NCBI GenBank assembly: GCA_038233095.1 | Contig: JBBSMR010000003.1 | Coordinates: 74,476-98,475 of the forward strand | Length of the DNA: 24,000 nucleotides | Direction: 5' to 3' | Source: Euzebyales bacterium | GTDB taxonomy: Bacteria > Actinomycetota > Nitriliruptoria > Euzebyales > Egibacteraceae | Shown here: positions 3,077 to 24,000 of the stretch, piece after piece | Layout: every line of letters starts with the position of its first letter | Position numbering within the stretch: position 1 is the stretch's first letter | Position numbers and translations under genes: made by a program | The notes under the pieces: generated by a model | Databases searched by the model: none | Told to the model about the DNA's origin: nothing | Seen by the model: only the letters and a program-made list of their open reading frames with translations

Positions 3077-3080
3077 ACGC

Positions 3081-8164: not shown

Positions 8165-8279
8165 GAGTAGGACCCCATCTGAGAGATGGGCGCTCGCGAG
8201 AGCGATGCGGTGGACGACGACTACCGAGGACGCGTCTCGCAGCATGTCGACGAGGTTCTCTACGGCTCTCCAAGAGGGC

Positions 8280-8880: not shown

Positions 8881-9105
8881 GTGTGGGCTGCCGGACTGGT
8901 GCCGGGGAGCCTTGGATCCGGTTTGGCCGTCGTGTATGTAGTCAGTGAGCAGAAGATCGTGATGGGGATCATCTATGCGGCGCAGGGCGTGCTCTGGGTC
9001 TGCTACCCCTGGCTCATGCTGAGGGGCCTCCGCTCGGTCCGAGAAGACGATCGGCGCGCCAGAGCCGCACGGGGCGGCGGGCGCCAGCGCGGAGAGACCC
9101 AGTAG
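8881..9105 (+). CDS. Possible small membrane protein (74 aa from GTG 8881, or 47 aa from ATG 8962)
   Basis: Two hydrophobic segments (AAGLVPGSLGSGLAVVYVV and IVMGIIYAAQGVLWVCYPWLML) followed by a basic tail. G/C third-position bias about 78% by hand count. No convincing SD and no recognised family. Confidence 0.3.
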   Translation: MWAAGLVPGSLGSGLAVVYVVSEQKIVMGIIYAAQGVLWVCYPWLMLRGLRSVREDDRRARAARGGGRQRGETQ

Positions 9106-9138
9106 CCTAGGGACCGCGGTCGTTGCCGCCTGTCGGCG

Positions 9139-9222
9139 TGAGTGACGACCGGATGGTGGGCATGATTCGCCCCCGTCGTCACTCAGTCGCTTCTGACCTG
9201 CGGAAACGCGGCTGAGTGACGA
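9139..9222. repeat. Three copies of an 11-bp element (TGAGTGACGAC direct, inverted, direct) spaced about 36 bp apart
   Basis: Copy 1 is 9139-9149 TGAGTGACGAC. Copy 2 is 9175-9185 GTCGTCACTCA, the exact reverse complement. Copy 3 is 9212-9222 CTGAGTGACGA. Copy 2 can pair with copy 1 or copy 3 (11 bp each, 25-nt loops). A degenerate fourth copy, GTCGTCAATC, lies at 9251-9260. Confidence 0.8.
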
Positions 9223-9303
9223 GGAGGGAAGCCTCGAACCCTGACCTTCCGTCGTCAATCGCGCAACTGGCCGCAACGCAATCTGTGCAGCGGCGTTCCC
9301 GAG

Positions 9304-10167: not shown

Positions 10168-11108
10168 GAGGGGGCTCCATCCAGGGTCGGGACCGGCGGT
10201 GCCGCGCGCGTCAAATGCACGAAGGCGTCCTCCAAGTCAGCGTCGGCGACGGTGAGGTCAGAGATGGCGTGCCCGCCGAGCACCAACGGGACCAGCACAT
10301 CCTCAGCCTTGGCGGCGTGGACGAGCAGACGCTGCATTCCTGGTGGCGCCGGGCCGCCGCCGACGTCGTCGAGCTCGATGCGCTCGGCGCCTGGCAGCGC
10401 GGTGACCACGGCCACTGGGGCGTCCGTGGTGACCCGGATCGTCTTCGACGCGACGAGCCGCTTCAGCGCGGCGGGGGGCGCGTCGGCGATCAGCCGTCCG
10501 TCCCCCAGCACCACGACCCGGTCGGCGACCGCGTCGGCCTCGGCGAGGTCGTGCGTGGCGAACAGCATCGTGGCCCCGTCCCGAACGCTCGCGCGGGTCC
10601 GCTCCCAGAAGGCCCGACGGGACGCCACGTCCATCGCCGCGGTCGGCTCGTCGAGCAGCAGCAGCTCGGGGGCGGACACGATCGCCAGCGCCAGGAGCAG
10701 CCGCTGCCGCTCGCCACCCGAGAGATCGGTGACGGTGCGCCTGCGACGATCGGTCAGCCCGACGCGTGCCAGCACCTCGTCGACCGGCAGCGCCACCGGA
10801 TAGCTGCGCCCGATCAGGCGCACCAGCTCCGAGACCGTGACCTGCTCGGGCAACCCGGCGTCCTGCAGCATGACCCCGAGCCGGCGCTTGACCCGCCCGC
10901 CTGGGGCCTCTCCGAGGACGCGCGCCTCCCCGCTGGTCGGCCGAGCGAGCCCGAGGAGCAGCTCGAAGGCCGTCGTCTTCCCCGCCCCGTTCGGGCCGAG
11001 GAGAGCGACGACCTCGCCTCGAGCGACCCGCAGGTCGAGGCCGGCGAGTGCCTCCACCGACCCGTAACGCTTGTGCACCGAGCGCAGTTCCAGCACCGTC
11101 ACGTCCAT
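10164..11108 (-). CDS. ABC transporter ATP-binding protein (exporter-type)
   Basis: Walker A GPNGAGKTT, signature LSGGERQR, Walker B LLLLDEP. Start is ambiguous (GTG 11111, ATG 11108, or a GTG two codons downstream); AGGAGG lies immediately upstream. Confidence 0.9.
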   Translation of the reverse strand: MDVTVLELRSVHKRYGSVEALAGLDLRVARGEVVALLGPNGAGKTTAFELLLGLARPTSGEARVLGEAPGGRVKRRLGVMLQDAGLPEQVTVSELVRLIGRSYPVALPVDEVLARVGLTDRRRRTVTDLSGGERQRLLLALAIVSAPELLLLDEPTAAMDVASRRAFWERTRASVRDGATMLFATHDLAEADAVADRVVVLGDGRLIADAPPAALKRLVASKTIRVTTDAPVAVVTALPGAERIELDDVGGGPAPPGMQRLLVHAAKAEDVLVPLVLGGHAISDLTVADADLEDAFVHLTRAAPPVPTLDGAPS

Positions 11109-11152
11109 CACCTCCTGCCCGAGACGCTAGGGACATCACCGCCGCGCGTCTT

Positions 11153-11191
11153 GTGCCAGACGTCATGTTTCGCAGGCATGACTTCTGGCAC
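11153..11191. promoter_or_regulatory. 15-bp-arm inverted repeat (14/15 match, 9-bp spacer) between the ABC exporter and the two-component operon
   Basis: GTGCCAGACGTCATG (11153-11167), then TTTCGCAGG, then CATGACTTCTGGCAC (11177-11191). Lies in the 116-bp divergent intergenic region. Confidence 0.4.
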
Positions 11192-11227
11192 CTGCGAGCT
11201 GTCGGTCGGCAGGCGTAGGGTCACGGT

Positions 11228-12358
11228 GTGAGCGAGCGCAACCTCGAGCGGCTGGGGATGGCCGCGGGCGCGATCGCCTGGTTGGCGGTCGGCGTCCCCG
11301 TGCTGCTCGAGCAGCTGCTGGGCTCAGGCGACATCATCAACGGGCCCGCCTGGGTGTGGTGGCTCGCCTACCTTGGCTATCTCGTCGCGTTCATGCTGGC
11401 CGACGCGGATCGTCTTCCCGGCTGGCTGACTCCTCACTGGCTGCTGGGGGCGCAGACGGTGCTCGGGGGCATCGTGTACGCGATGACGCTGGGGTTCGGC
11501 TGGACGGCCGTGCTGCTCGTGGTCACCGCGGTGACCGCCGCCTACGTCCTCGACACGCGCGGGACCATGGCGCTCGTCGCCGCGCAGACCGCCTTCATCG
11601 CCGTCGCCTCGCTCTTCGCCGGCGCCGACGCGCTCAATATCTTCCTCTCCGTCGTCGTCTACGGGAGCTTCCAGGCCTTCAGCGTGCTCGTGGTCTGGAG
11701 CGAGCTGCGCGAGGCCGAGGCGCGCGCCAGCCTCGCGGAGGCGAACGCTCAGCTGCGCGCCGCGACGGTGCTGCTCGACGAGTCCAGCCGGGTGACCGAG
11801 CGGCTGCGCATCGCGCGCGACCTGCACGACCTCATCGGACATCAGCTCACGGCGCTGGCGCTCGAGCTCGAGGTGGCGTCACATCGCAGCAGCTCGCCCG
11901 CCAGTGAGCACGTGAGCCGGGCGCGCCGGATCGCGAAGGAGCTGCTGTCGGATGTCCGCTCTGCGGTGGGAGAGCTGCGGGAACCGACCCCGGGACTGCG
12001 CTCCGCGCTGGAGGCGGTGGTCGCCGACCTTCCACATCCCGAGATCCACCTGCACGTGCCGGCACACGTCGAGGCTGACGAGGAGCGCACGATGGCGCTC
12101 GTCCGCTGCGTCCAGGAGATCGTGACGAACGCGGTGCGCCACGCTGACGCCGACCACCTCTGGATCCGCCTCGCTGCGACCGAGGGCGGAGGGACGCGCC
12201 TCGAAGCGCGCGACGACGGACGGGGGGTCGCGGCCCTGCGGCCCGGCAACGGGCTGACCGGCATCCGGGAACGGATCGAGCAGCTCGGAGGCGAGGTGGC
12301 GTTCGAGGTGGGTCCCGGGCGCGGCTTTCTGGTCGTCGCGGAGGTGCCCGCCCCGTGA
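11228..12358 (+). CDS. Sensor histidine kinase, HisKA_3 (NarL-partner) type, membrane-embedded sensor
   Basis: About six N-terminal TM helices with short loops. H-box RLRIARDLHDLIGHQLTAL. HATPase_c motifs NAVRHA, DDGRG and GNGLTGIRER. GTG 11228 start (alternative ATG 11258). Confidence 0.85.
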   Translation: MSERNLERLGMAAGAIAWLAVGVPVLLEQLLGSGDIINGPAWVWWLAYLGYLVAFMLADADRLPGWLTPHWLLGAQTVLGGIVYAMTLGFGWTAVLLVVTAVTAAYVLDTRGTMALVAAQTAFIAVASLFAGADALNIFLSVVVYGSFQAFSVLVVWSELREAEARASLAEANAQLRAATVLLDESSRVTERLRIARDLHDLIGHQLTALALELEVASHRSSSPASEHVSRARRIAKELLSDVRSAVGELREPTPGLRSALEAVVADLPHPEIHLHVPAHVEADEERTMALVRCVQEIVTNAVRHADADHLWIRLAATEGGGTRLEARDDGRGVAALRPGNGLTGIRERIEQLGGEVAFEVGPGRGFLVVAEVPAP

Positions 12359-13026
12359 TCGAGGTGTGTGTCGTCGATGACCAGACGCTTGTCCGAGAGG
12401 GGGTCCGCAGCCTCTTGGAGCTCGCCGAAGACGTGGTCGTCACCGGCGAGGCGGTGGACGGCGACGCGGCGCTCGACCTCATCGCGCGTCAGCCCCCCGA
12501 CGTGGTGCTGCTGGACCTGCGCATGCCGCGACGCGACGGCATCGCGACGCTGGAGGCATTGCGCGCACGCGGGATCGACCTGCCCGTCCTGGTCCTGACG
12601 ACCTTCGACGATGATGAGCTCGTCCTGCGCGCGCTGCGGGCGGGTGCCCGCGGGTACCTTTTGAAGGACGTCACGCTCGATCAGCTGGTCGAGGCGATCC
12701 GCACCCTCGCCAGCGGCGGGACCCTCGTTCAACCTGCGGTGACCGAGCGGATGGCGCGCGCGCTCGCGGAGCAACCGGAGTCCGATGCGTTCACCGAGCT
12801 ACCCGCGCCGCAGCCGTTGACGGAGAGGGAGCTGGAGATCCTGCGCCTGCTCGCGGGCGGGTATGCCAACCGGGAGATCGCCGCGGCGCTCTATCTCGCG
12901 CCAGGCACGGTGAAGAACCACGTCTCCAGCCTGCTCATGAAGCTCGGCGTCCGGGACCGCACGCGCGCTGTGCTGCGCGCGCTGCACCTCGGACTTCTGA
13001 CCCACGATGCCGGTCAGAACCCATGA
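12355..13026 (+). CDS. LuxR/NarL-family response regulator
   Basis: Receiver domain (VVDDQ..., DVVLLDLRMP, LTTFDDD, GYLLKD) plus a C-terminal LuxR HTH (LTERELEILRLLAGGYANREIAAALYLAPGTVKNHVSSLLMKLGV). GTGA overlap with the kinase stop. Confidence 0.9.
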   Translation: MIEVCVVDDQTLVREGVRSLLELAEDVVVTGEAVDGDAALDLIARQPPDVVLLDLRMPRRDGIATLEALRARGIDLPVLVLTTFDDDELVLRALRAGARGYLLKDVTLDQLVEAIRTLASGGTLVQPAVTERMARALAEQPESDAFTELPAPQPLTERELEILRLLAGGYANREIAAALYLAPGTVKNHVSSLLMKLGVRDRTRAVLRALHLGLLTHDAGQNP

Positions 13027-13709: not shown

Positions 13710-13849
13710 GACGCCACTGTACATCACCCGGCGTCCCTCAGGCGCGGGCGGAACTGCCGCCCGGTCGTGACGGCACGAGAGTGATCGCGGCGGCCCCCTC
13801 GATCGACGTACTACGCTTTCCTCGACTTCCGACAAGAGGTAGGGATGAC

Positions 13850-14872
13850 TTGCGAACACTGACGGGACGGCTTGTTCAGATCCTGTTGGCCGTGGTGCTG
13901 GTCGCCTGCGGTGGGACGCCCGGTGAGGCGACCGACAGTTCGCCGACCACCGCCGTGGCCCAGCGTGGGGGCGCGGCCGGCACCATCCGCCTGTACACCT
14001 CCGTCACCCAGGACACGGTCGACGCCGTGCTGCAAGGCTTCCAGAGTTCGAACCCCGACGTCAAGGCCGAGGTCTTCCGCGCCCCGACGGGTGAGTTGAA
14101 CGCGCGTCTGGCGGCCGAGCAGCGCTCAGGCGGCGTCAAGGCGGATGTGCTGTGGCTGACCGACCCCCTGTCGATGTACGCCTACGACGAGCAGGACCTG
14201 CTGGCCGAGTGGACGCCAAACGGCGCGGAGGCGATCCCTGAGCAGTTCAGGACCGAACGGTTCTGGGGCACCCGCATCCTCAACCTCGTGATCGTCCACC
14301 GGCAAGGCCTGCAACCCGCCCCGACGGGCTGGCAGGACCTGGCCGACGACGCCTACAGCGAGCCGGTGGCCTTCCCCGACCCGGCCTTCGCCGGGTCGTC
14401 GTTCGCGGCGCTCGGCTACTTCGCGCTCGATGAGGAGTTCGGCTTCGACTACTACCGGGCGCTCAGGGCGAACGGTGCCGTTGAGGTGCAGGCGCCCGAT
14501 GAGGTCATCACCGGGGTCGCGGAGGGCCGGTTCTCCGCCGGCATGTCGCTGGACAAGAGCGTCCGGGACGCGGCCGAGGAGGGCGCGCCGATCGAGCTGG
14601 TCTGGCCCGAGCCCGGTGCGATCGCGCTCTACAGCCCGATCGCGGTGATCAGGAGCACGACGAACGAGGAGGCCGCCCAGGCGCTGGCCTCCTTCGTGCT
14701 CACCGAGCCCGCACAGGCCGCGATCGCCTCCACGGGTTGGCAGCCCGTGCTCCCCGGTGTCGAGGGGCCGCCGATGCCGACGGACGCCGAGCAGGTGTTC
14801 CCCGACTGGGAGGCCGCCTTCGGCCGTCAGGACGAGCTGCTCAGCGAGTACCGCTCGAGCCTCGGAGACTGA
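13850..14872 (+). CDS. ABC transporter substrate-binding lipoprotein, Fe(III)/thiamine-type (AfuA/FbpA-like, family 1 SBP)
   Basis: Track ORF 13781..14872. TTG 13850 gives MRTLTGRLVQILLAVVLVACGG, a lipoprotein signal with lipobox LVAC, and has GAGGT about 9 nt upstream. The mature part (IRLYTS...ELNARLAAEQ...ADVLWLTDP) resembles COG1840-type iron-binding proteins (recollection). Confidence 0.75.
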   Translation: MRTLTGRLVQILLAVVLVACGGTPGEATDSSPTTAVAQRGGAAGTIRLYTSVTQDTVDAVLQGFQSSNPDVKAEVFRAPTGELNARLAAEQRSGGVKADVLWLTDPLSMYAYDEQDLLAEWTPNGAEAIPEQFRTERFWGTRILNLVIVHRQGLQPAPTGWQDLADDAYSEPVAFPDPAFAGSSFAALGYFALDEEFGFDYYRALRANGAVEVQAPDEVITGVAEGRFSAGMSLDKSVRDAAEEGAPIELVWPEPGAIALYSPIAVIRSTTNEEAAQALASFVLTEPAQAAIASTGWQPVLPGVEGPPMPTDAEQVFPDWEAAFGRQDELLSEYRSSLGD

Positions 14873-16500
14873 TGCGACGCTCAAGAGGCTGGGAGCGGTC
14901 CGGTCGCCTCGTCGTCGGCCTCGCGCTGGCGCTGCTGGTGGGCTACCCGCTGGTGCGGCTGGTGCTCGCCGCCTTCGCCGACGGGCCCGAGCCGGTGCTG
15001 GCCACCTTCGAGCGCTCCGGAATCGCCCGCGCGGTCGGCAACACGGTGTGGACGTCAGCGGCGGTGACTGCGGCGGCGGTGGCGCTGGGTACCGCCGGGG
15101 CGCTGACCATCGAGCGTGGCGCGGTGCCCGCGCGGCGCTGGCTGCGCGCGGGGCTGCTGCTCCCGCTGCTCGTCCCGCCGTTCGTGGCCGCGCTCGGCTG
15201 GACAGCCGGATACGGGCCGGGCGGGGTGCTGGACGACGCTGTGGGAGTGGCGGTCCCACAACTGTACGGACCCGTCGGTGTGATCACGGTCATCACCGTC
15301 AACGCCGTGCCGTTGGCCTATCTGATCGTGGCCGGAGCCTTGCGCGGACGGGCCGAACCTGACCTTGAGCGGGCGGCGCGCGTCAGCGGGGCCAGTGTAC
15401 GAACGGCCCTGTGGACGATCACGTTGCCGCTCCTGCGCCCCGCGCTCGGAGCCTCTGCGGTCGTGGTCTTCGTCTTCTCCGTCAACAGCTTCGGGGTGCC
15501 CGCCGTGCTCGGCACGCCCGCCGGCTTCGAGACGATGACCACGGTGATCTACCAGAACCTGGCGTTCGCCGCGGATCCCGACGCCTTCACCCGCGTGCTC
15601 GTCCTGGCCGTCGCGCTCGTACTCGTCGCGGTGGGCGCGGTGGCCGTCAGCGACGCCGTCGCGGCGGGCGGGCGGGTGCGGCGCACCGGCGGGCCGGCGG
15701 GAACAACCTCCGCCCACGTCACGACGCAGGGTCGGTGGGCGGCCGCGGTGGCCTGGGGCTACGTCGGCGCCACCAGCCTGGTTCCGCTGGTCGCCTTGGT
15801 CCTGCTCGCGCTCACCCGGGCGGTGGGGCTGCCGCCCGCCCCGCGGTACTGGACGCTGCAGAACTTCGCGGACGCCGTCGATGGGCGGACCCTCAGCTCG
15901 CTCGGGCACAGCCTGCTGCTCGCGGCGGTCGCCGCGACCCTGCTGGTCTGCCTCGGCGGCCTGGTCGCCGCGCTGGAGAGATCGCCAGCGGCACGACGGC
16001 TCGGCACCCTCGCCACGATGACGTTCGCCCTGCCCGGATCGGCGCTGGCCGTCGCCGTGCTGCTCGCCTACGGCAGTGTGCTTGCCGACACCCTGGCGAT
16101 CATCCTCGTGGCCTATCTGGGCAAGCTGTGGGCGTTGGGCCACCGGCCGCTGGCCGCCGCCGTTGATCGGCTCCCCGGAGACGTCCACCGAGCCGCGCGC
16201 GCTTCGGGGGCAGGACCCGCCACGACCCTGATCACCGTCGTCGCGCCGCTGCTCAGCCCCGCGCTCGCCGCCGGGTGGGTGCTGGTCTTCCTCTTCGCGT
16301 TCCACGAGCTGACGATGTCCGCGCTGCTGTACGGACCGGGAACCGCGACGCTGGGGGTCGCCGTGCTCAACCTGCAGCAGCTCGGCGACACGCCGGCGAC
16401 CGCGGCGCTCGCCATCCTGCTCACGGCGGGCGTTCTCGTGGGCGCCGCGCCCCTGCTCGTCTTCCGCGGGACCTGGTCCCGGCTGAGGCGGGTGGACTAG
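14872..16500 (+). CDS. ABC transporter permease, duplicated (about 12-TM) Fe(III)-type (AfuB/FbpB-like)
   Basis: Track ORF 14737..16500, trimmed to ATG 14872, which overlaps the SBP stop by 1 nt (TGATG). Two repeated MetI-like halves, highly hydrophobic, 542 aa. Confidence 0.85.
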   Translation: MRRSRGWERSGRLVVGLALALLVGYPLVRLVLAAFADGPEPVLATFERSGIARAVGNTVWTSAAVTAAAVALGTAGALTIERGAVPARRWLRAGLLLPLLVPPFVAALGWTAGYGPGGVLDDAVGVAVPQLYGPVGVITVITVNAVPLAYLIVAGALRGRAEPDLERAARVSGASVRTALWTITLPLLRPALGASAVVVFVFSVNSFGVPAVLGTPAGFETMTTVIYQNLAFAADPDAFTRVLVLAVALVLVAVGAVAVSDAVAAGGRVRRTGGPAGTTSAHVTTQGRWAAAVAWGYVGATSLVPLVALVLLALTRAVGLPPAPRYWTLQNFADAVDGRTLSSLGHSLLLAAVAATLLVCLGGLVAALERSPAARRLGTLATMTFALPGSALAVAVLLAYGSVLADTLAIILVAYLGKLWALGHRPLAAAVDRLPGDVHRAARASGAGPATTLITVVAPLLSPALAAGWVLVFLFAFHELTMSALLYGPGTATLGVAVLNLQQLGDTPATAALAILLTAGVLVGAAPLLVFRGTWSRLRRVD

Positions 16501-17502
16501 GTGGGCACCGACAGCGTCCTGGCCTGCACCGGTCTCACCGTCGGGTACGCGCAGACGCCGATCCTGCACCACCTCGACGTGCACATCGAGCACGATGAGT
16601 CGGTGGCGGTGCTGGGCCCTTCTGGGTCGGGAAAGACCACCTTGTTGCAGACGGTCGCGGGGTTCTTGGTGCCTTGGGAGGGCGAGATCCGAATCGTCGG
16701 CACGCTCGTCGCGTCACCTACGAAGGTGGCGCCGCCCGAACGGCGCAGCCTCGGGGTGGTCTTCCAGCACTACGCGCTGTGGCCGCACCTGTCCGCGCTC
16801 GACAACGTTGCCTACCCCATCCGACGCCGCGGCGCCGCGACCGAGCGTGCGCGCGGAGAGGCAGGCGAGCTGCTCGACCTCATGGGCATCGGTGCCCTCG
16901 GCGACCGCCGCCCCGACGAGCTCTCCGGTGGGCAGCAACAGCGGGTCGGGCTGGCGCGCGCTCTCGCACGCCGCCCAGACGTGTACCTGTTCGACGAGCC
17001 GACCGCTCACCTGGACGCACCGCTGCGCGGCGCGCTGCAGGAGGAGCTCGCCGAGCGTCGCCGTCAGACCGGCGCGGGGGCGCTGTACGCGACGCACGAC
17101 GCGGTCGAGGCGCTCGCCGTGGCGGACCGTGTGGTGCTGCTGCGTGACGGTCGCGTCGTGCAGTCCGGCGCGCCCGTGGAGGTCTATGAACAACCGGTCG
17201 ACCTGTGGGCGGCCAGGCTCACCGGCGCCGCATCGGTCCTGCCGACCGAGGCGCTGGCGTCGATGGGGCAGGCACTGGAGACGGACCCCGACGGTCACGC
17301 GCAGGTCCTCATCCGCCCTGAGTGGGCGGCGCTGCCGGGCCCCCTGCCCGGGCTCGTCACTCAAGTCTGGTACCGGGGGGCCCACACGGACTATCGGCTT
17401 CAGACCCCTGCCGGGGATGTCGTCGTGCGCCGCGCCGGCGGGCCGTGCGCGCGCGTCGGCGAGCGGCCCGGTTGGGCGCTGCACCGCTGCTGGCCGGTCT
17501 GA
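16501..17502 (+). CDS. ABC transporter ATP-binding protein (FbpC/PotA-like importer ATPase)
   Basis: Walker A GPSGSGKTT, Q-loop, signature LSGGQQQRV, Walker B VYLFDEP, and a C-terminal TOBE-like regulatory domain. GTG start lies directly after the permease stop. Confidence 0.9.
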   Translation: MGTDSVLACTGLTVGYAQTPILHHLDVHIEHDESVAVLGPSGSGKTTLLQTVAGFLVPWEGEIRIVGTLVASPTKVAPPERRSLGVVFQHYALWPHLSALDNVAYPIRRRGAATERARGEAGELLDLMGIGALGDRRPDELSGGQQQRVGLARALARRPDVYLFDEPTAHLDAPLRGALQEELAERRRQTGAGALYATHDAVEALAVADRVVLLRDGRVVQSGAPVEVYEQPVDLWAARLTGAASVLPTEALASMGQALETDPDGHAQVLIRPEWAALPGPLPGLVTQVWYRGAHTDYRLQTPAGDVVVRRAGGPCARVGERPGWALHRCWPV

Positions 17503-17504
17503 GA

Positions 17505-17524
17505 GCCCGCGCCATCAGGCGGGC
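17505..17524. terminator. GC-rich hairpin between convergent genes (possible bidirectional terminator)
   Basis: GCCCGC (17505-17510) pairs with GCGGGC (17519-17524) around an 8-nt loop, in the 26-bp gap between the ABC ATPase stop and the DUF6390-like stop. No clear U-tract. Confidence 0.3.
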
Positions 17525-17528
17525 CGGC

Positions 17529-18347
17529 TCAGCCGAGGATGACGGCCGGGCCCGGATGCGCGAGACGGTGGTTGACCATCTCCAGCGTCCTCCGCGAATA
17601 GGCTCGCAGGGCATGCCGCCCGCGTGGGCTCAGACGGTCACAGACCCAGCCCCAGTGCATGGAGACCCAGTCACCGACCTGCACCTCCTGCACGAAGCCG
17701 AGACCGTCGATGGCCTTGACGACCGTCTCCACGCGCGGGGCGCCGAGCAGCAGCCGCCGTCCGTCCCACTCCAGAGGCCGGGACCGGACGGCGACCTCGT
17801 CGCCGGCCACCGCGACGGCCTGCCCCCAACGGATGCGGCAGCGGTCGAGGATCTCCAACGGCTGGCCACCACGGTCCTCGGGGCGCAACAGCCCCACCCA
17901 CGGGTAGACGCAGAAAACATGAAAGCTGTGGTGGGGCACTCCTCCAGCAGGGATCGACTCGGCCAGGCGGTCCCAGCCTGGCCCCGCGCGTCGACGAAAG
18001 CGTTCCTCCAGCGAGTTGCCCATCAGCGCCGTGGGCACCTCATCGAGCAGGCGGTTCCCGACCCAGTACGCCTCCACCACGCGTCGGTCGAGCGGATCCA
18101 AGCCGCTGGATTCCGCCAATAGCTGCAGATAGGGCCACGCACCATTGAAGGCCTGTGCGATCTGCACGATGCCGGCGTCCACGACCCGCGCCGCGCCGTA
18201 CTCGAGCAGCTCGCGATGATCCGTGGGGCCGCAGTATCCGCGTTCGTTCGGGGCGTAGGCGTAGCGCGCGAACAGCAGCGGTCCGAAGGAATCGGGGAGG
18301 GTCCGGGGGACGGTGTCCGACGTGGTGGGGGGCCGACCGGGATCCAT
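17529..18347 (-). CDS. Uncharacterised hydrogenase-cluster protein (DUF6390-like by recollection), last gene of the hyp operon
   Basis: 272 aa with strong codon bias. N-terminal LLFARYAYAPNERGYCGP motif. The C-terminal ~70 aa resemble a HypC fold (see findings). The family name comes from memory, not a search. Confidence 0.7.
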   Translation of the reverse strand: MDPGRPPTTSDTVPRTLPDSFGPLLFARYAYAPNERGYCGPTDHRELLEYGAARVVDAGIVQIAQAFNGAWPYLQLLAESSGLDPLDRRVVEAYWVGNRLLDEVPTALMGNSLEERFRRRAGPGWDRLAESIPAGGVPHHSFHVFCVYPWVGLLRPEDRGGQPLEILDRCRIRWGQAVAVAGDEVAVRSRPLEWDGRRLLLGAPRVETVVKAIDGLGFVQEVQVGDWVSMHWGWVCDRLSPRGRHALRAYSRRTLEMVNHRLAHPGPAVILG

Positions 18348-18434
18348 GGACGCTCCGAGCTCGTAGGACTCTTCGGCGACCAGTATGCAACCCGAGTTAC
18401 GGGGGAGGCCGAGAAACAGCCCGCAGTCGGTCGA

Positions 18435-19517
18435 TCAGCAGATGCGAGGAAGGGGGTCGCCGACGAGCATGTCGATCATGCGGTGGCCGCCGAAGGTCGT
18501 GCGGCCGAGCACGCGGCCCTCGGGCTCGTCGCGCACCTCGCCGATGATCGCGGCGTCCGCGCCGGCCGGATGCGAGCGCAGCGCGTCGAGCGCGGCGTCG
18601 GCGTGCTCGGGTGCGACGAAGGCGACGAGCTTGCCTTCGTTCGCGACGTAGAGCGGGTCGATGCCGAGGATCTCCCCGGCGCCGACGACTTCGGGTCGCA
18701 GCGGCAGTCGCTGCTCGTCGATCACCACGCCCAACCGGGTGGCCAGCGCGATCTCGTTCAGCACCGTGGCGACCCCGCCCCGGGTGGCGTCGCGCATGCA
18801 GTGCAGCGATTCGCCACAGGCCTCGAGCATCGCCTCGGCCAGCGGCCACAAGGGCTGGGTGTCGCTGGAGACGTCGGCGTCGATGTCGAGCTCACCCCTG
18901 GCCAGCATGATCGCCACACCGTGATCGCCGATCGTGCCCGAGACGAGCACCTTGTCGCCGGGACGGACCAGTTCGGGCGCGACCGCGACGCCGGAGGGCA
19001 CGGCGCCCACCCCGGTCGTGGTGATGTAGAGCATGTCGGCCTTGCCGCGCTGCACGACCTTCGTGTCCCCGGCGACGATCGCGACGCCGGCCCGCCGTGC
19101 GGCCGCTCCCATGGCCCCCACCTCGGCCGCGAGCACCTGCGCGTCGAGGCCCTCCTCGAGGATGAGCGCCGCCGACAACCACGCCGGACGAGCTCCGACC
19201 ATGGCGAGATCGTTCGCCGTGCCGTTCACGGCTAGCTCGCCGATCGACCCGCCTGGGAAGGTGATCGGCTGGACGACGAACGAGTCGGTGGTGAAAGCAA
19301 GCCTCGCGCCGTCGAGCGCGAGCACCGCCGCGTCGCCGAGCGCCGCCAGCGTCGGGTTCTCCAGCGCGGGCACGATCAATCCCTCGACGAGCTGGCGGGA
19401 CGCCTTGCCGCCTGCCCCGTGCGACATGGTGATGTGCTCGTCGATGAAACGGGGGCGTCGCCGGCGCATGTCCTCGATGCGCTCGATGACTTCGTGTTCG
19501 GTGAACTGCTTGGGCAT
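18435..19517 (-). CDS. hypE: Hydrogenase maturation carbamoyl dehydratase HypE
   Basis: 360 aa, PurM-like. N-terminal ITMSHGAGGKAS and the diagnostic C-terminal PRIC. GGAGG-containing SD upstream. Confidence 0.95.
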   Translation of the reverse strand: MPKQFTEHEVIERIEDMRRRRPRFIDEHITMSHGAGGKASRQLVEGLIVPALENPTLAALGDAAVLALDGARLAFTTDSFVVQPITFPGGSIGELAVNGTANDLAMVGARPAWLSAALILEEGLDAQVLAAEVGAMGAAARRAGVAIVAGDTKVVQRGKADMLYITTTGVGAVPSGVAVAPELVRPGDKVLVSGTIGDHGVAIMLARGELDIDADVSSDTQPLWPLAEAMLEACGESLHCMRDATRGGVATVLNEIALATRLGVVIDEQRLPLRPEVVGAGEILGIDPLYVANEGKLVAFVAPEHADAALDALRSHPAGADAAIIGEVRDEPEGRVLGRTTFGGHRMIDMLVGDPLPRIC

Positions 19518-19539
19518 CGTGCCTCCGGATCAGGACTTT

Positions 19540-20664
19540 TCAGACCTCGACGTGCATCCGCTTCTTCGCGTAGCGGCCGTAGTTGTAGTACGCGGCGCAG
19601 GCGCCCTCGGACGAGACCATGCACGTTCCGATCGGCGTCTCCGGGGTGCAGGCGGTGCCGAAGACCTTGCACTCCCACGGCTTCAGCACGCCCTTCAGGA
19701 CCTCGCCGCACTGGCAGGACTTCGGATCGGCGACGCGCACACCCGGAACGGGGTAGCGCAGCTCCGTGTCGTACTCCGCGTACCGGGACGACAGCTTCAG
19801 CGCCGAGTGGGAGATGAACCCGAGGCCACGCCATTCGAAGTGCGGCCGGAGCTCGAAGACGTCGGCCATCACCCGCAGCGCCTGCGGGTTGCCGTCCCAC
19901 GGCACGATGCGGGCGTACTGGTTCTCGACCTCGGTCCGGCCCTCGGCGAACTGGCGCATGATCCAGGCGATCGACTCGAGCACGTCGAGCGGCTCGAAGC
20001 CCGCGCACACGACCGGCTTGCCGTGCTGGGCGGGGACGAACTCGTAGGGACGGCAGCCGATCACGGTCGAGACGTGGCCCGGCCCGATGAACGCGTCGAG
20101 GCGCAGATCGGGGGAGTCGAGGATCGCCTTGATCGCCGGGATGATCGTCACGTGGTTGCAGAAGACCGAGAAGTTCGTGATGCCCTCGCCCTTCGCCCGT
20201 ACGAGCGTGAGCGCCGTCGAGGGCGCGGTCGTCTCGAAGCCGATCGCGTAGAAGATGACCTGCTTCTCCGGGTTCTCGCGGGCGATGCGCAGCGCGTCCA
20301 GCGGCGAATACACCATCCGGATGTCGGCGCCCCGGGCGTTGGCGTCGAGGAACGAGCCGGTGCTGCCGGGCACGCGCATCATGTCGCCGAAGCAGGTGAG
20401 GATGACGTCGTCGTGCTGCTCGGCGATCGCGACCGCGTCGTCGACCCGACCCATCGGGATCACGCAGACGGGACAGCCGGGGCCGTGCACCAGCTCGATG
20501 GTCTCCGGCAGGAAGTCATGGACACCGAACCGGTAGATCGCGTGGGTGTGCCCGCCGCACACCTCCATGATCTTGTAGTGCCGACCGGGCTCGGCAAGGC
20601 TGGCGATCTGGGCCGCGAGCGCGCGCGCGAGCTCCGGGTCGCGGTATTCGTCTACGAAACGCAT
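19540..20664 (-). CDS. hypD: Hydrogenase maturation Fe-S protein HypD
   Basis: 374 aa. Motifs MEVCGGHTH, GPGCPVCV and FETTAP, plus C-terminal Cys motifs. Confidence 0.95.
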   Translation of the reverse strand: MRFVDEYRDPELARALAAQIASLAEPGRHYKIMEVCGGHTHAIYRFGVHDFLPETIELVHGPGCPVCVIPMGRVDDAVAIAEQHDDVILTCFGDMMRVPGSTGSFLDANARGADIRMVYSPLDALRIARENPEKQVIFYAIGFETTAPSTALTLVRAKGEGITNFSVFCNHVTIIPAIKAILDSPDLRLDAFIGPGHVSTVIGCRPYEFVPAQHGKPVVCAGFEPLDVLESIAWIMRQFAEGRTEVENQYARIVPWDGNPQALRVMADVFELRPHFEWRGLGFISHSALKLSSRYAEYDTELRYPVPGVRVADPKSCQCGEVLKGVLKPWECKVFGTACTPETPIGTCMVSSEGACAAYYNYGRYAKKRMHVEV

Positions 20665-20678
20665 GGGTCTCGACCTCT

Positions 20679-20954
20679 CTAGGCTGTGAGCTTCTCCAGA
20701 GCGACTTTGGCGTGCACGAGCAGCAGGTCACCGGCTGCGACCGGGCCGACGAGGTCGGTCGCGACCACCTCTTCACGACCCGTTTCGTCGCGGCACCGCG
20801 CGTCATAGGCGTCGGCCTCGACGACTCTCAGCGCCACGGCCACGTCCCCGCAGGTGATGCAGCCGTCGTCGATCGAGCAGGCGTCGACCGGTGTGCCGAG
20901 CGACGGCGGTGGTGCTGGGCCGGCGAGCGGCAGCAACGGCGACGCGCCGCTCAT
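20679..20954 (-). CDS. HypC/HybG/HupF-family chaperone paralog (no N-terminal Cys; internal CITCGD motif)
   Basis: Track ORF 20679..21221, trimmed to ATG 20952-20954, an ATGA overlap with the hypC stop. MSGASPLL...CSIDDGCITCGDVAVALRVVE...AAGDLLLVHAKVALEKL matches the HupF-like branch as I recall it. Confidence 0.7.
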   Translation of the reverse strand: MSGASPLLPLAGPAPPPSLGTPVDACSIDDGCITCGDVAVALRVVEADAYDARCRDETGREEVVATDLVGPVAAGDLLLVHAKVALEKLTA

Positions 20955-21223
20955 TCGATCCTCGATCCGGCGATCTCGGCGACCTCGGTGTCGAACTGCT
21001 CGCCGAGCAGCTTCAAGCCGCTCATCGCCGTGGCCGCCTCCTCCTCGTCGATGATCGACATCGCGAAGCCGACGTGGATGAGCACCCAGTCGCCGATCTC
21101 GATGCCTTCGTCCTTTACCAGGCCGATGTTGATGTTGCGTCGGACACCGGTGACCTCGACCTTGGCGAGCTGGTCGGTCTCCTCGAGGAAGTCGACCACC
21201 TGGCCCGGGATGCCAAGACACAT
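20951..21223 (-). CDS. hypC: Hydrogenase maturation chaperone HypC
   Basis: Track ORF 20951..21373, trimmed to ATG 21221-21223, giving the canonical MCLGIPGQVV N-terminus. IGDWVLIHVGFA motif present. GGAAAGGAG SD upstream. Confidence 0.9.
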   Translation of the reverse strand: MCLGIPGQVVDFLEETDQLAKVEVTGVRRNINIGLVKDEGIEIGDWVLIHVGFAMSIIDEEEAATAMSGLKLLGEQFDTEVAEIAGSRIE

Positions 21224-21227
21224 GGCG

Positions 21228-21584
21228 TTAGCTCCTTTCCGCCGGTTCGGCGGCGTGATAGCGGATCGACTCGAGTACCAGGTCGTCGCCGCCCTCGCGG
21301 GTGACCCGGACGCTTCCACACGTCGGGCAGGCGGGCGTCGGATCGCGCGAGTCGAAGGTGGCGCCGCAGTCATCGCAGGTGCCCTGCACGGGCACGAAGA
21401 CCAGCTCGGGGTGGGCCCCGTCGGCGACGCTGCCGGCGGCGACCAGCTCGAATGACTGGGCGAAGGCTTCGGGCTGAACGCGCAACAGGGTGCCGACCCG
21501 TACCGTCAGGCCGGCGACCGGGCGGCCGTCCGCGCGCCGCTCGACCGCGGCCAGGACGCTCTCGCACATGCCGATCTCGTGCAT
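21228..21584 (-). CDS. hypA: Hydrogenase nickel-insertion protein HypA
   Basis: Track ORF 21228..21629, trimmed to ATG 21582-21584, giving the MHE nickel-binding N-terminus (MHEIGMCESVL). Zinc site CDDCG...CPTCG. Confidence 0.9.
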   Translation of the reverse strand: MHEIGMCESVLAAVERRADGRPVAGLTVRVGTLLRVQPEAFAQSFELVAAGSVADGAHPELVFVPVQGTCDDCGATFDSRDPTPACPTCGSVRVTREGGDDLVLESIRYHAAEPAERS

Positions 21585-21588
21585 GGCC

Positions 21589-22098
21589 TCAGCCTCTCTC
21601 GTCAATGGGCAGGGTGTGACCCAGCCCATTGTCGGGCTCGCTCAGCAGTGTCACAAGCTGCTCCACCGTGGGCTCGACCGCCGCCTCGACCACAGGGGAG
21701 AGGCCCATCCGCTCGCTGACCTCGGCGGGCTCGCACCCAACCACGACCGTGGGTGGCAGCGTCCCCCCGAGGCCGCGCAGGCTCGCGAAGACCGTGGCCG
21801 GGTCCATGGCGTGGCTGTCGACCGTACCCCGCTCGGTCTGCTCGTCCGGATCGACGTGCAGGAGCGAGACCGTGCCAGGCTCAGCGCCGCTCGGCAGGGC
21901 GTCGATCAGCACGAGCTGGTCGACCCCGTTCAGCAGGTCATAGGCCAGATGAATCCCGCCGATGCCGTAGTCCTTCACCCGCACACCTTCGGGCAGCGGG
22001 CGCGCGGCCAACCGACGGGCGACCTCAGATCCGAAGCCGTCGTCACCCAGAAAGATGTTGCCGACTCCGGCGACCAGGACGCTCCTGCACTCGGCCAA
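21589..22098 (-). CDS. hupD: [NiFe]-hydrogenase maturation endopeptidase (HupD/HyaD/HybD family)
   Basis: Core VLVAGVGNIFLGDDGFG...LIDA...DSHAM... is typical of the family. The track ORF extends to 22341, but that extension is Arg-rich and overlaps a better-biased frame. TTG 22096-22098 gives MAECRSVLVAGVGN (169 aa). The start is uncertain. Confidence 0.8.
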   Translation of the reverse strand: MAECRSVLVAGVGNIFLGDDGFGSEVARRLAARPLPEGVRVKDYGIGGIHLAYDLLNGVDQLVLIDALPSGAEPGTVSLLHVDPDEQTERGTVDSHAMDPATVFASLRGLGGTLPPTVVVGCEPAEVSERMGLSPVVEAAVEPTVEQLVTLLSEPDNGLGHTLPIDERG

Positions 22099-22102
22099 AC
22101 GC

Positions 22103-22375
22103 CTAACCGCCCTGGTCGCCGGGCTTGAGCAGCGGCATCGCGGGGTCGATCGGCGGCAGCGGGTCGACCCCGGACCACGACGAGGGACCTTTGCGGTCCA
22201 TCGAGTCCTTCTTCCCGCTGGCTCTTGCTTGCCTGGGTATCGCGGTGCCGCGGCCGCGGCTGCCAGGCCGTCCGCGTTGCTCCTGCGACTCCGCTTCCGA
22301 GAACCGTCCTGCCGGGAACGGGTTGGCCCGCTCCAGGTCACTTGGCTCCATCACCATGCCTCGTCGGTTTGGCAT
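22103..22375 (-). CDS. Hypothetical low-complexity protein (90 aa) upstream of hupD
   Basis: Hand-counted GC by codon position is about GC3 82%, GC1 70%, GC2 61%, the pattern expected for a coding frame. ATG 22375 has GGGAG 8 nt upstream. The TAG stop lies 4 nt before the proposed hupD start. The sequence is Pro/Gly/Arg/Ser-rich with no Cys and no recognised family. Confidence 0.45.
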   Translation of the reverse strand: MPNRRGMVMEPSDLERANPFPAGRFSEAESQEQRGRPGSRGRGTAIPRQARASGKKDSMDRKGPSSWSGVDPLPPIDPAMPLLKPGDQGG

Positions 22376-22392
22376 CGCTCATGCTCCCTTCG

Positions 22393-22506
22393 TCACATCG
22401 ACCTGATCTTGACGTAGCGCTTGATGTCGTCCAGCGAGGCGACCACCGCCGCGGTGAGCATGACGGCGACCGTTCCGAGCATCGTACGCAGGATCCACTT
22501 CTCCAT
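22393..22506 (-). CDS. 37-aa single-TM micro-protein (not in the ORF track)
   Basis: MEKWILRTMLGTVAVMLTAAVVASLDDIKRYVKIRSM. The ATG is preceded by GAAGGAGG (22513-22520) with a 6-nt spacer. 35 of 37 codons end in G/C. One hydrophobic helix is followed by a basic tail. Confidence 0.6.
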   Translation of the reverse strand: MEKWILRTMLGTVAVMLTAAVVASLDDIKRYVKIRSM

Positions 22507-22533
22507 GTCGCGCCTCCTTCGTGTGGCGTTCCA

Positions 22534-22551
22534 CCGACCCCCCAGGGTCGG
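22534..22551 (-). promoter_or_regulatory. Intra-operon GC hairpin (7-bp stem, 4-nt loop)
   Basis: CCGACCC (22534-22540) pairs with GGGTCGG (22545-22551). Sits between the 440-aa gene stop and the SD of the micro-ORF. No U-tract. Confidence 0.3.
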
Positions 22552-22557
22552 CGACTG

Positions 22558-23880
22558 CTAGGACTGCACCTCCTTGAGCGGCAGCGGATCAACCTCGTCG
22601 CTCGCGAAATACTGGAAACGGCCGTACCAACGGTGCAGCTCCGCCGCGGGGTCGTCGACCAAGGTCACGGCGAGGTAGACCTCACCCTCCTCGGTGCGCA
22701 CGATCCGCTCCACGAGCGCCTCCCGTCCGTCAGCAAAGAGATCGTGGGCGTCGGCGCGGCGCCGGGGACGCAGGATCACACGCTCTCCCACCGCCACCGT
22801 CTCGCCGCCCACCTGGATCGCGCGCACAGGCGCCTCCCCCACGCCGAGCAGGTCGCGCACCTCGTCGGTCACGGCGGCCGCCGGCTCGGGCCGCAGATCG
22901 GCGGGGCGCAGCTCGCGGACCGTGCCGTGCAGGCGCTCCTGCACCGCCGCGGGGAGCGTGTCCGTGCGGTCGATCAGCTCCGCGGCGCGCGGATCGGTCG
23001 CCCGTGCCCGGCGCCTCTCCTCGTCTGACAGCCCGAGCACACACAACGCGAGCAGCTCGTCGACCTCGGTCGCGTCGAACGACGGTCCGGGGCTCTCGGC
23101 GGCGATCTGAGGATGGTCGTAGAGGATGATCGGGGCGCCGAGCACGACGTCGTCGTCCTCGCCGACCAGCACCGGATGCAAGCCACGGTGGTGCAGGTCC
23201 GCGACGGCTTCCTCGGCCCACTCCGGAGGATCGATCGCCGAGGCGAACACGCCGTCGTCGACCGCGAACAGCACGTGCGCGCCGATGACCGCGCGTCGCA
23301 GCACGTCGTCGCGAGGCGCGCGCTGCGCGGACCATGGTGTGTCGTTCTGCACCGCCGCCCGCAGCTTGTACACGTCGGGTCCAAGCCGAGTCACCTCGAC
23401 GCGCAGCTCACCGCACACCGGCTCGGTGCTGCGCACCGCCTGGCCGGCCGCGCCGAGCGCTTCCCGCTCCTGCGAGCCGTCCAGGTCGAAGCGAGCACGC
23501 CACGGTCCGGCCTCGCCAAGGACCACCGCCGCCGTGACCTCGTGCTCGAGCCCCTCCTCCCAGGTCGGGACGGGGTCGCCGTCGACCTCCAGCTCGTCGA
23601 CGGGCTGGCCCTCGGCGTCGAGCATCTGGCGCAGCCGCAGGTGCAGGAAGCGCGCCGAGACGTCGACGACGGCTCCTGCGGGCGCGCGGACGAGCGCTTC
23701 ACAGTGGACGGCGCTCGGCTCGGTGGCGCCGAGCTCGACCTGGGCCTGCGGGATGACCACGCCCCACTGCCACCGGTACTTGTTCTTGAGCGCCGATGCC
23801 CGGTACGGGAAGAGCACGTAACCCTCGTAGAGCACGGCATCGGCGACCTGCCGCGCGAGCTGCAGCGTCTCGGCGCTCAT
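22558..23880 (-). CDS. Conserved-looking hypothetical protein (440 aa) in the hydrogenase maturation operon
   Basis: Track ORF 22558..23952, trimmed to ATG 23878-23880, an ATGA overlap with the upstream gene's stop. Strong codon bias throughout. Only 3 Cys and no metal-cluster or nucleotide-binding motif that I recognise. Confidence 0.7.
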   Translation of the reverse strand: MSAETLQLARQVADAVLYEGYVLFPYRASALKNKYRWQWGVVIPQAQVELGATEPSAVHCEALVRAPAGAVVDVSARFLHLRLRQMLDAEGQPVDELEVDGDPVPTWEEGLEHEVTAAVVLGEAGPWRARFDLDGSQEREALGAAGQAVRSTEPVCGELRVEVTRLGPDVYKLRAAVQNDTPWSAQRAPRDDVLRRAVIGAHVLFAVDDGVFASAIDPPEWAEEAVADLHHRGLHPVLVGEDDDVVLGAPIILYDHPQIAAESPGPSFDATEVDELLALCVLGLSDEERRRARATDPRAAELIDRTDTLPAAVQERLHGTVRELRPADLRPEPAAAVTDEVRDLLGVGEAPVRAIQVGGETVAVGERVILRPRRRADAHDLFADGREALVERIVRTEEGEVYLAVTLVDDPAAELHRWYGRFQYFASDEVDPLPLKEVQS

Positions 23881-24000
23881 GACAGGTGCTCCGGGGGACC
23901 GGGCATCACGACCGAGGCGTCCTGGAGCAGTCGGGTGACGGCGGCATCCCACGTGGGCAGCGCATGGCGAGCCTTGTAGTCCTGCAGCGCGTCGATCGTG
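23877..24000 (-). CDS. 3' end of an unidentified gene (5' part outside the window), first visible gene of the operon
   Basis: The minus-strand frame is open from the window edge to TGA 23877-23879. Translation: ...TIDALQDYKARHALPTWDAAVTRLLQDASVVMPGPPEHLS. Not in the track because there is no start in the window. The stop overlaps the next gene's ATG. Confidence 0.4.
   Translation of the reverse strand, partial: TIDALQDYKARHALPTWDAAVTRLLQDASVVMPGPPEHLS

Follow-up and report, generated by a model that had tools for sequence, protein, structure and literature searches.

A predicted group 1h [NiFe]-hydrogenase operon in an Egibacteraceae genome, with a near-universal micropeptide and a HypC-like DUF6390 protein

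We analyzed a stretch of 24,000 nucleotides (nt), here called the window, from a metagenome-assembled genome (MAG) of the family Egibacteraceae (contig JBBSMR010000003.1, positions 74,476 to 98,475). Positions 17529 to 24000 of the window hold a block of hydrogenase maturation genes together with five genes that bear no functional name. On sequence evidence, this block makes up the distal two-thirds of a group 1h (Hhy, or “actinobacterial-type”) [NiFe]-hydrogenase operon, which runs in the order hhyS-hhyL-hhyE(NifU)-DUF5947-DUF6084-X440-DUF6893-LC90-hupD-hypA-hypC-hupF-like-hypD-hypE-DUF6390, where X440 and LC90 stand for proteins of 440 and 90 amino acids (aa). A group 1h operon that brings its own dedicated accessory factors is, in our judgment, the best overall explanation of the block, with a probability of about 0.7. 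Much of the uptake of atmospheric H2 by soils is due to group 1h hydrogenases, which also aid the persistence of many aerobic bacteria, and from its class, the enzyme of this operon would be expected to oxidize H2 with high affinity and in an O2-insensitive manner.

The class assignment comes from sequence upstream of the window. Two short public contigs, L001 among them, encode a 440-aa protein identical to X440, and L001 matches the window at 100% identity over 1588 nt and reaches further upstream. It encodes, in this order, the C terminus of a hydrogenase large subunit, a NifU protein (281 aa), a DUF5947 protein (265 aa), a DUF6084 protein (219 aa), and X440. The large subunit ends in FDPCLPCGVHQYLGNGKVLKELHSPAGVPDAQ*, directly upstream of the NifU gene, and carries the group 1h L2 motif FDPCLPCGVH 21 residues ahead of the stop. 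Because this identical contig has the L2 motif upstream of NifU-DUF5947-DUF6084-X440, we assigned the hydrogenase of the window to group 1h. The initial annotation of the window had proposed an oxygen-tolerant or high-affinity hydrogenase module and had pointed beyond position 24000 for the structural genes; the extension yielded the large-subunit C terminus, and its L2 motif shows that the proposed class was right. The sequence of this genome covers only the 3′ end of hhyL, and the L1 motif TSRICGICGDNH was seen in the loci of relatives, where it occurs together with L2 S[FY]DPCLPCGVH in all 75 of the 75 related loci with enough upstream flank. Both L2 SFDPCLPCGVH and L1 TSRICGICGDNH are published signatures of group 1h/5 [NiFe]-hydrogenases (PMC5364354).

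The gene order between the large subunit and the maturation protease agrees with this assignment. Across L001 and the window, a NifU-type HhyE and the equivalents of the open reading frames (ORFs) PHG066-069 lie between hhyL and hupD. The entire cluster, hhyS and hhyL included, is present in a relative (L089) whose 440-aa protein is 74% identical, in the order hhyS-hhyL-NifU-DUF5947-DUF6084-440aa-DUF6893-90aa-hupD-hypA-hypC-DUF6390-ABC importer, the last being an ATP-binding cassette (ABC) transporter. We then examined 80 genome loci that were picked solely by X440 similarity and span Actinomycetota, Pseudomonadota MAGs, and Thermoanaerobaculia. Approximately 75 of the 80 preserve the order NifU-DUF5947-DUF6084-X440, most have hupD as the next gene, and in 57 of 68 loci, fewer than 100 nt separate the X440 alignment from that of hupD. 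Since the order recurs at this frequency through to hupD, the arrangement in the window is not a chance one.

The coding signal of positions 17529 to 24000 lies on the minus strand throughout, and the 11 genes are separated by distances that range from a 4-nt overlap to 87 nt. The genes of the block, listed in the direction of transcription, and the adjoining importer are as follows.

23877..24000, minus strand: 3′ end of a DUF6084-family gene, last 40 codons and stop (PF19562, E 5e-6)
22558..23880, minus strand: X440, 440-aa PHG069-family protein (no Pfam/NCBIfam model; assigned by orthology to pHG1 WP_011153991.1)
22393..22506, minus strand: DUF6893 micropeptide, 37 aa (PF21833, E 4e-10, 40 bits versus a cutoff of 24.6)
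22103..22375, minus strand: LC90, 90-aa Pro/Gly/Arg-rich protein (conserved in four relatives; no family match)
21589..22098, minus strand: hupD, hydrogenase maturation endopeptidase, 169 aa, TTG start (TIGR00072, 127 bits; PF01750)
21228..21584, minus strand: hypA, nickel metallochaperone, 118 aa (PF01155, E 5e-23)
20951..21223, minus strand: hypC, 90 aa, N terminus MCLGIPGQ (PF01455, 87 bits; TIGR00074, 82 bits versus a cutoff of 48)
20679..20954, minus strand: second HupF/HypC-family protein (hupF-like), 91 aa (PF01455, 34.4 bits versus a cutoff of 28.5; below the NCBIfam cutoff)
19540..20664, minus strand: hypD, 374 aa (PF01924, 512 bits; TIGR00075, 484 bits)
18435..19517, minus strand: hypE, 360 aa (TIGR02124, 429 bits; AIRS and AIRS_C domains)
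17529..18347, minus strand: DUF6390 protein, 272 aa (PF19927, E 4e-93, 311.6 bits versus a cutoff of 25)
13781..17502, plus strand: ABC importer, convergent on the DUF6390 gene (Pfam and NCBIfam matches), with the three parts below
13781-14872, plus strand: ABC substrate-binding protein
14737-16500, plus strand: ABC fused double permease
16501-17502, plus strand: ABC ATPase with a TOBE domain

ATGA overlaps (−4) link the DUF6084 fragment to the X440 gene and hypC to the hupF-like gene. Gaps of 4 nt separate the LC90 gene from hupD, hupD from hypA, and hypA from hypC, the first of these given the TTG start of hupD at 22098, which the gene caller also picked on the identical contig L002. The remaining spacings are 51 nt from X440 to the 37-aa gene, 17 nt from there to the 90-aa gene, 14 nt from the hupF-like gene to hypD, 22 nt from hypD to hypE, and 87 nt from hypE to the DUF6390 gene. 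These recomputed junctions bear out the 11 same-strand genes with gaps of −4 to 87 nt that the initial annotation had reported, together with two ATGA overlaps and three 4-nt gaps, but the “1-nt-style coupling” that it also listed could not be identified. Shine-Dalgarno-like GGAGG or GGAG stands 5′ of the 37-aa, 90-aa, hypC, and hypE starts. No sigma-70-like promoter was found within positions 17529 to 24000, and the single intrinsic-terminator-like site in the block is not above the yield of shuffled sequence. In the 26-nt gap at 17503-17528, between the convergent stops of the DUF6390 and ABC ATPase genes, a short GC-rich inverted repeat (GCCCGC...GCGGGC) may form a shared terminator hairpin, though it has no T-run.

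Profile searches against Pfam and NCBIfam confirmed the earlier calls of hupD, hypA, hypC, a hypC/hupF paralog, hypD, and hypE, and five unnamed genes of the sizes given at the time (partial, 440, 37, 90, and 272 aa) stand beside them. The second HupF/HypC-family protein has no N-terminal Cys2 and carries an internal C..DGCITCGD. Neither hypB nor hypF is present in the whole window, and the nickel GTPase is therefore encoded elsewhere in the genome or replaced. In one relative (L093), hypF lies divergently, upstream of hhyS. Care is needed with the name HypE in public records: in RefSeq, group 1h small-subunit genes carry the propagated label “hydrogenase expression protein HypE” (L174:4208-5263, which is pHG1 WP_011153986.1, and L175:1912-2967), and the same misnaming was met in work on R. 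equi (PMC13332983).

Two of the five unnamed genes, those for DUF6084 and X440, are already published known-unknowns. The 40-aa DUF6084 fragment in the window scores 26.6 bits against a Pfam gathering threshold of 25, which the full-length protein on L001 exceeds with 286.5 bits (PF19562), and the ortholog of this gene on plasmid pHG1 of C. necator (PHG068) bears the RefSeq name “DUF6084 family protein.” X440 aligns with C. necator pHG1 WP_011153991.1 at 35% identity over 96% coverage (E 3e-47, tblastn). We assign the two, by sequence comparison, as orthologs of C. necator PHG068 and PHG069; within the sample examined, both occur only alongside group 1h structural genes. PHG066-069 have been described as four ORFs of unknown function (PMC4377017), and other reports list class-specific conserved hypothetical proteins of this hydrogenase, likewise of unknown function (PMC5900883; bioRxiv 457697; PMC13332983). 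HhyE, the NifU protein, is the only one to have been deleted, and it is needed for activity (PMC6883350). DUF6084 and X440 belong to the block proximal to hhySL and are not interleaved hyp partners. The earlier observation of ORFs without an assigned function amid a hyp operon holds as far as function goes, but the presence of such ORFs in group 1h clusters had already been published.

X440 matched no consistent Pfam or NCBIfam family at E values up to 5, even when all 17 diverse members of alignment A1 were scanned, and its more than 5,500 homologs are all unnamed. Sequence-profile searches of the PDB with X440, DUF6084, DUF5947, and DUF6390 returned no relative of solved structure. The AlphaFold2 (AF2) model of X440, with a mean predicted local distance difference test (pLDDT) score of 78 and a predicted template modeling (pTM) score of 0.65, starts with helices at the N terminus, continues in a large beta-sandwich (residues ~57-250) and a helical segment (273-317), and ends in an SH3-like barrel (354-432). 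When this model was compared with the PDB by Foldseek, the C-terminal domain was matched only by SH3-like barrels (nitrile hydratase beta, BAH, PetP). For the whole protein, a DrmA-like fold was considered and set aside as uninformative, the Foldseek match to 7s9w_A having an E value of 9e-6 with a template modeling (TM) score of 0.26 and a root mean square deviation of 22 Å. The X440 alignment contains two invariant His and no invariant Cys residues, and two stretches are nearly invariant, YEGYvLfPYRaSaxKNxxRWQwGV and PIILYDHP..A.ES.G...D.TEIDELL. A 624-aa protein from a Joint Genome Institute metagenome (P0047), the one sequence cluster of this kind, has X440 fused in frame to a HycI/HupD endopeptidase domain, a Rosetta-stone hint that X440 and the endopeptidase may act together.

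The 37-aa peptide, named “DUF6893 family small protein” by NCBI, has one hydrophobic, transmembrane-type helix (maximum 17-residue hydropathy of 2.15, in the transmembrane range) followed by a conserved C-terminal tail, SLDDIKRYVKIRSM, and a Shine-Dalgarno-like GAAGGAGG motif precedes its start. A word-based homolog search with the peptide returned 6 proteins, the query being too short for this method. Similar peptides were first spotted between X440 and hupD in a few of the X440-selected loci. A hidden Markov model (HMM) built from these peptides was run against six-frame translations of all 80 loci and then iterated. The first HMM recovered a DUF6893 peptide in 63 of the 80 loci and the iterated HMM in 71; 72 of 74 matches lay on the operon strand, and reversed-sequence controls gave none. 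In the consensus, a hydrophobic helix (median maximum 17-residue hydropathy of 2.25) precedes ..SLPDI[KR]RYLxIRxM, and among 89 unique peptides, Arg-Tyr is invariant and the last residue is Met in 99%. The 37-aa peptide of the window itself has both the hydrophobic helix and the tail ..PD..RY..IR.M (alignment A3). Six loci of non-1h hydrogenase contexts contained no such peptide. We conclude from these matches that DUF6893 is a near-universal predicted micropeptide of group 1h clusters.

The peptide is placed directly after hupD in 46 loci and, as in the window, between X440 and hupD in 7. Where hupD belongs to a divergent hyp operon (9 loci), the peptide remains directly after X440, and because it stays there when hupD is separate, we tie it to X440 rather than to hupD. 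The ORF is also present on well-known replicons. On C. necator H16 pHG1, it reads MKGFLKYLVLPALVVALLANIKDIRRYIRIRSM and lies between the protease gene and hypF (L174:10999-11100; approximately 66753-66854 of the record), and on the M. intracellulare plasmid NZ_CP012886.2, it reads MQIVGWVFIAIVGLIALVGLVMGLVSLPDAKRYLKIRRM, in an ORF ending at 8433 of L175. Both ORFs adjoin the hydrogenase protease gene, and both are missing from the PLSDB gene tables, of which the one for pHG1 is incomplete. No mention of DUF6893 was found in a literature search. Five clusters (L161, L146, L122, L079, and L006) have two DUF6893-type peptides each. In two further loci (L168:4568-5595 and L173:4024-5022), a DUF6893 peptide is followed directly by a DUF6390 gene and an ABC importer, with no hydrogenase gene within ~4 kb and with a major facilitator superfamily transporter and an aldo-keto reductase upstream of the set. 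The group 1h enzyme has been reported to be membrane associated, with an unknown anchor (PMC13332983), and because of this, a membrane-tether role for DUF6893 is an attractive reading of its predicted helix.

In the reading that we prefer, DUF6084 and X440, together with HhyE and DUF5947, would be factors dedicated to the group 1h enzyme and not to the Hyp machinery at large. The probable target of X440 is the large-subunit precursor, on which it would act during or close to cleavage by HupD, and the DUF6893 helix probably places either the HupD step or the finished enzyme at the membrane. The same proteins could instead be partners of the mature enzyme, in which case DUF6084, X440, DUF6893, HhyE, and DUF5947 would form an electron transfer or docking module that connects the cytosolic Hhy, which has no cytochrome b, with menaquinone and the membrane. 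We regard this as doubtful for the set as a whole, yet a docking or electron transfer role with the mature enzyme is the main rival for X440. The hhySL-proximal genes are grouped with the structural genes and precede hupD and the hyp genes, and X440 and DUF6893 remain with hhySL when the hyp genes form a separate divergent operon. DUF5947 (L001:938-1732; PHG067 family) has an invariant C-x2-C ... H-x-H ... C-x-C-x2-C pattern and a later Cys (alignment A6), which fits a putative metal or Fe-S site and the published suggestion of an electron acceptor. Islam et al. take this view of HhyE and propose that the DUF5947 ortholog (MSMEG_2717/PHG067) may accept electrons (PMC6883350), and a hydrophobic helix encoded beside an enzyme that is membrane associated without a known anchor (PMC13332983) would suit docking as well. 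Against such a module, neither X440 nor DUF6084 has conserved ligands for a redox cofactor, X440 adjoins the maturation protease and is sometimes fused to it, and an artificial acceptor did not rescue the hhyE mutant of Islam et al., who left a maturation role open (PMC6883350).

The 90-aa LC90 protein is of a different kind. Its position is held in four relatives by an ORF of 87 to 90 aa with ~70% identity and invariant ends, MPN.RG..EP..LE.A.PFP.GRF and GV.PLPPIDP.MPLL.PGDQGG. Third codon positions take 38 to 40 of the ~70 nucleotide substitutions, and roughly one in two altered codons still encodes the same amino acid. LC90 has no Pfam or NCBIfam family match, and an exhaustive HMMER scan of 1.84 billion representatives found only 4 related clusters. 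Its conservation marks LC90 as a real gene, confined to this Nitriliruptoria-like lineage and therefore not a general part of the system. The protein is probably disordered, rich in Pro, Gly, and Arg, and we see it as a likely lineage-specific add-on.

That both small ORFs arose by chance in GC-rich intergenic DNA, which would leave three unknowns among nine genes, is very improbable. High-GC DNA does contain many spurious ORFs, the 90-aa ORF shares sequence with a long alternative frame for hupD, and the gene caller on L002 gave this ORF only 82 aa. The 37-aa ORF nevertheless has a Pfam match above the cutoff, a strong Shine-Dalgarno sequence, and homologs that the reversed controls lack, and the 90-aa ORF keeps its position, length, and termini in relatives while its codons change mainly at third positions. 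Conservation and codon-position evidence effectively refute the view that these ORFs are spurious.

The DUF6390 protein, encoded by the last gene of the operon, belongs to a large, well-conserved family with invariant C39, H139, H140, H143, C170, H231, and C236. Helices make up its N-terminal half (~170 residues), a domain in which Cys and His residues are invariant, and its C-terminal half (~170-261) is a predicted HypC-like beta-barrel and helix. In the AF2 model, strands at 173-238 are followed by a helix at 241-261, with pLDDT scores of 79 to 95 in this region; an oligonucleotide/oligosaccharide-binding-type beta-barrel followed by a C-terminal helix is the HypC architecture. The top two PDB fold matches in Foldseek are both HypC (3vyr_A and 2z1c_B; probability 1.0, TM score 0.6 relative to HypC). 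A single-sequence hhalign comparison of DUF6390 with the HypC/HupF-like proteins of the window was too weak, and family profiles were used instead: profile-profile alignment of DUF6390 with HypC from the loci gave an E value of 1.3e-5 and a probability of 80% across the GDWV.xH core, and in the global profile alignment, the invariant Cys170 pairs with the essential HypC Cys2. With a subthreshold Pfam HupF_HypC match as the third, three weak, independent lines thus point to a HypC-like C-terminal domain. DUF6390 scored below the cutoff of Pfam HupF_HypC (PF01455; 14.4 versus 28.5 bits, E 0.043), and a PDB profile search reached HypC (3d3r_A) at an E value of 0.58 only. Because of this score and because its Cys is internal, DUF6390 is HypC-like and not a member of the HypC family. 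The initial annotation had tied none of the five unnamed genes to a maturation step, which stands in that none has a profile match to a characterized factor, but not for the C-terminal domain of DUF6390.

To follow the neighborhood of DUF6390, we used 80 metagenome loci picked solely by this protein. The immediate upstream gene on the same strand is HypC, HypA, or HypE in 44 of 67 loci, and X440 lies upstream in 14 of the 22 loci with long flanks, from which we conclude that group 1h operons often end in a DUF6390 gene. ABC importers of a single type adjoin DUF6390, in either orientation, in 24 of the 43 loci with enough flank, and also in L083, L087, and L089. The linkage of DUF6390 to the importer is as tight as that to the hyp genes. 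NCBIfam matches that could indicate a substrate (PhnS2/U2/T2-like, Fbp, and ferric or polyamine ATPases) were far below their cutoffs; the importer may supply metal for hydrogenase assembly. Proteins in which a GntR helix-turn-helix (HTH) domain is fused to full-length DUF6390 (P0197, P0205, P0208, P0221, and P0222; L087:7210-8241) are encoded between hypC and the importer, a hint that DUF6390 is able to serve as a sensor or effector domain.

Our preferred reading casts DUF6390 as a HypC-derived carrier or chaperone whose additional Cys/His domain would handle a metal that is supplied or sensed together with the neighboring ABC importer. A purely regulatory DUF6390 is a serious rival, in which the protein would stand outside the Hyp machinery, work with the importer as its sensor or regulator, such as a metal-responsive effector domain, and merely border the hydrogenase cluster; we consider this possible but rather unlikely. 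The recurrence of the importer as the next gene speaks for it, as do the overlap of DUF6390 with the substrate-binding-protein gene in L083, the GntR-HTH fusions in the same slot directly upstream of the importer, loci with DUF6390 and the importer that have no hydrogenase gene within 4 to 10 kb, and the invariant Cys/His set. It fits poorly with the same-strand hyp genes that directly precede DUF6390 and often overlap it by 4 nt, with the many loci that have DUF6390 after hypC and no importer within 10 kb (L128, L136, L137, and L156), and with the HypC-like character of the C-terminal domain. In the window, moreover, the DUF6390 gene and the importer are convergent and therefore not cotranscribed.

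Several points weigh against the reading of the unnamed genes as dedicated accessory factors. The roles suggested for X440, DUF6084, DUF6893, and DUF6390 are drawn from sequence and genomic context. The proposed pairing of X440 with HupD would follow from adjacency and a single fusion cluster, and neighboring genes fuse easily; X440 itself has no invariant Cys, and its best fold match (DrmA) is uninformative. The C. necator enzyme was reportedly purified and crystallized as large and small subunit only, which argues against stable extra subunits, and hence also against the docking module, but leaves room for both assembly factors and loosely bound partners. The DUF6390 model as a whole is of moderate confidence (pLDDT 68), and the protein has no free N-terminal Cys2, its putative Fe-binding Cys being internal (residue 170), unlike that of HypC. 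DUF6390 was found within 10 kb in just 8 of the 80 X440-selected loci, is absent from the pHG1 cluster, and also occurs away from hydrogenase genes (L085, L168, and L173).

The initial annotation had suggested that the five genes are stoichiometric partners of the Hyp machinery, an idea drawn from gene spacing only. The genes are not one class: the set is mixed, with an hhySL-proximal pair, a lineage-restricted LC90, and an importer-linked DUF6390. Conservation beside hyp genes, which it had also raised, applies to four of the five in hydrogenase clusters elsewhere and is limited to a narrow lineage for the 90-aa gene. Literature searches (DUF names, hhaABC, and recent structures of Hhy accessory proteins) found no functional assignment, and both the conserved ORFs of unknown function in group 1h clusters and the lack of a known anchor come up time and again in papers published between 2013 and 2026 (PMC6883350; PMC13332983; PMC5900883; PMC4377017). 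The window brings no new kind of system, and the near-universality of DUF6893 and the HypC-like DUF6390 are what is most interesting in it. One joint reading, which we think unlikely, would have the DUF6893 helix as the missing anchor, its invariant cytosolic tail docking X440 and/or HhySL-HhyE, and DUF6390 as a HypC-derived metal carrier that ties a dedicated ABC importer to cofactor assembly. If true, a DUF6893 anchor would account for the membrane association and respiratory-chain coupling of an enzyme without cytochrome b or twin-arginine translocation. Targets for the existing models C. necator H16 and M. smegmatis are DUF6893, a peptide of 33 to 40 aa that ~90% of clusters have and that annotation readily overlooks, the pairing between PHG069 and the endopeptidase, and the importer-tied HypC-like domain within DUF6390.

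The rest of the window has its own content. Positions 158-6313 hold a myo-inositol catabolism-like gene set that is unrelated to the hydrogenase block, with a DeoC/LacD aldolase, a PfkB kinase, a xylose-isomerase-like TIM barrel protein, KduI/IolB, and two GFO/IDH/MocA oxidoreductases. From there to the ABC importer, genes lie at 6404-6880 (plus strand), 9304-11111 (minus strand), and 11228-13026 (plus strand); the products encoded across 6404-13026 are a heme-binding beta-barrel protein that resembles THAP4/nitrobindin, a pair of ABC-2 exporter proteins, and a HisKA_3 kinase together with a response regulator of the LuxR type.

Finally, we compared the block with known hydrogenase systems. 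Against the accessories of group 1d (MBH-type) hydrogenases (HoxL/O/Q/R/T/V, HyaE/F, and HupG-K), the five unnamed genes had no Pfam or NCBIfam match at E values up to 0.1-5. DUF6390 resembles the HypC/HupF/HoxL chaperones in its predicted beta-barrel and C-terminal helix and in a gene position directly after hypC, and differs from them in its helical N-terminal domain, internal Cys, linkage to an importer, and occasional GntR DNA-binding fusion. For DUF6893, the closest parallel is HucM, which Grinter et al. (2023) are said to have described as the membrane-associated stalk of the group 2a hydrogenase Huc, a noncatalytic, hydrogenase-specific membrane link, encoded in the structural operon, of an atmospheric-H2 oxidizer that lacks cytochrome b. 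The parallel is a functional analogy only, with no sequence relationship expected for a peptide of just 33 to 40 residues, and DUF6893 was not found in the Huc-like loci examined. M. smegmatis Hhy is of the same class as the hydrogenase of the window and likewise has a NifU-type HhyE (MSMEG_2718, in the structural operon MSMEG_2722-2718) followed by conserved hypothetical proteins (PMC6883350), the first of them, MSMEG_2717, being the PHG067 homolog; HhyE is the sole accessory there to have been deleted and shown to be required. The actinobacterial-type hydrogenase cluster of C. necator H16 pHG1 consists of hofK/hofG (PHG064/065), PHG066-069, PHG070 (hupD), and hypF3C2D2E2A3B3, and shares with the operon of the window, in the same order, the small and large subunits, NifU, DUF5947, DUF6084, an X440 ortholog (476 aa), and the protease. 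Its micropeptide gene follows hupD, whereas that of the window lies between X440 and hupD; the window has in addition the lineage-specific 90-aa gene and the DUF6390 gene. In turn, pHG1 has a SIS-domain gene, hypF, hypB, and a HoxN-type nickel permease, none of which is in the window, where an ABC importer adjoins the operon instead. A mycobacterial plasmid cluster has the identical gene order and, like the window, a DUF6893 peptide between X440 and the protease.

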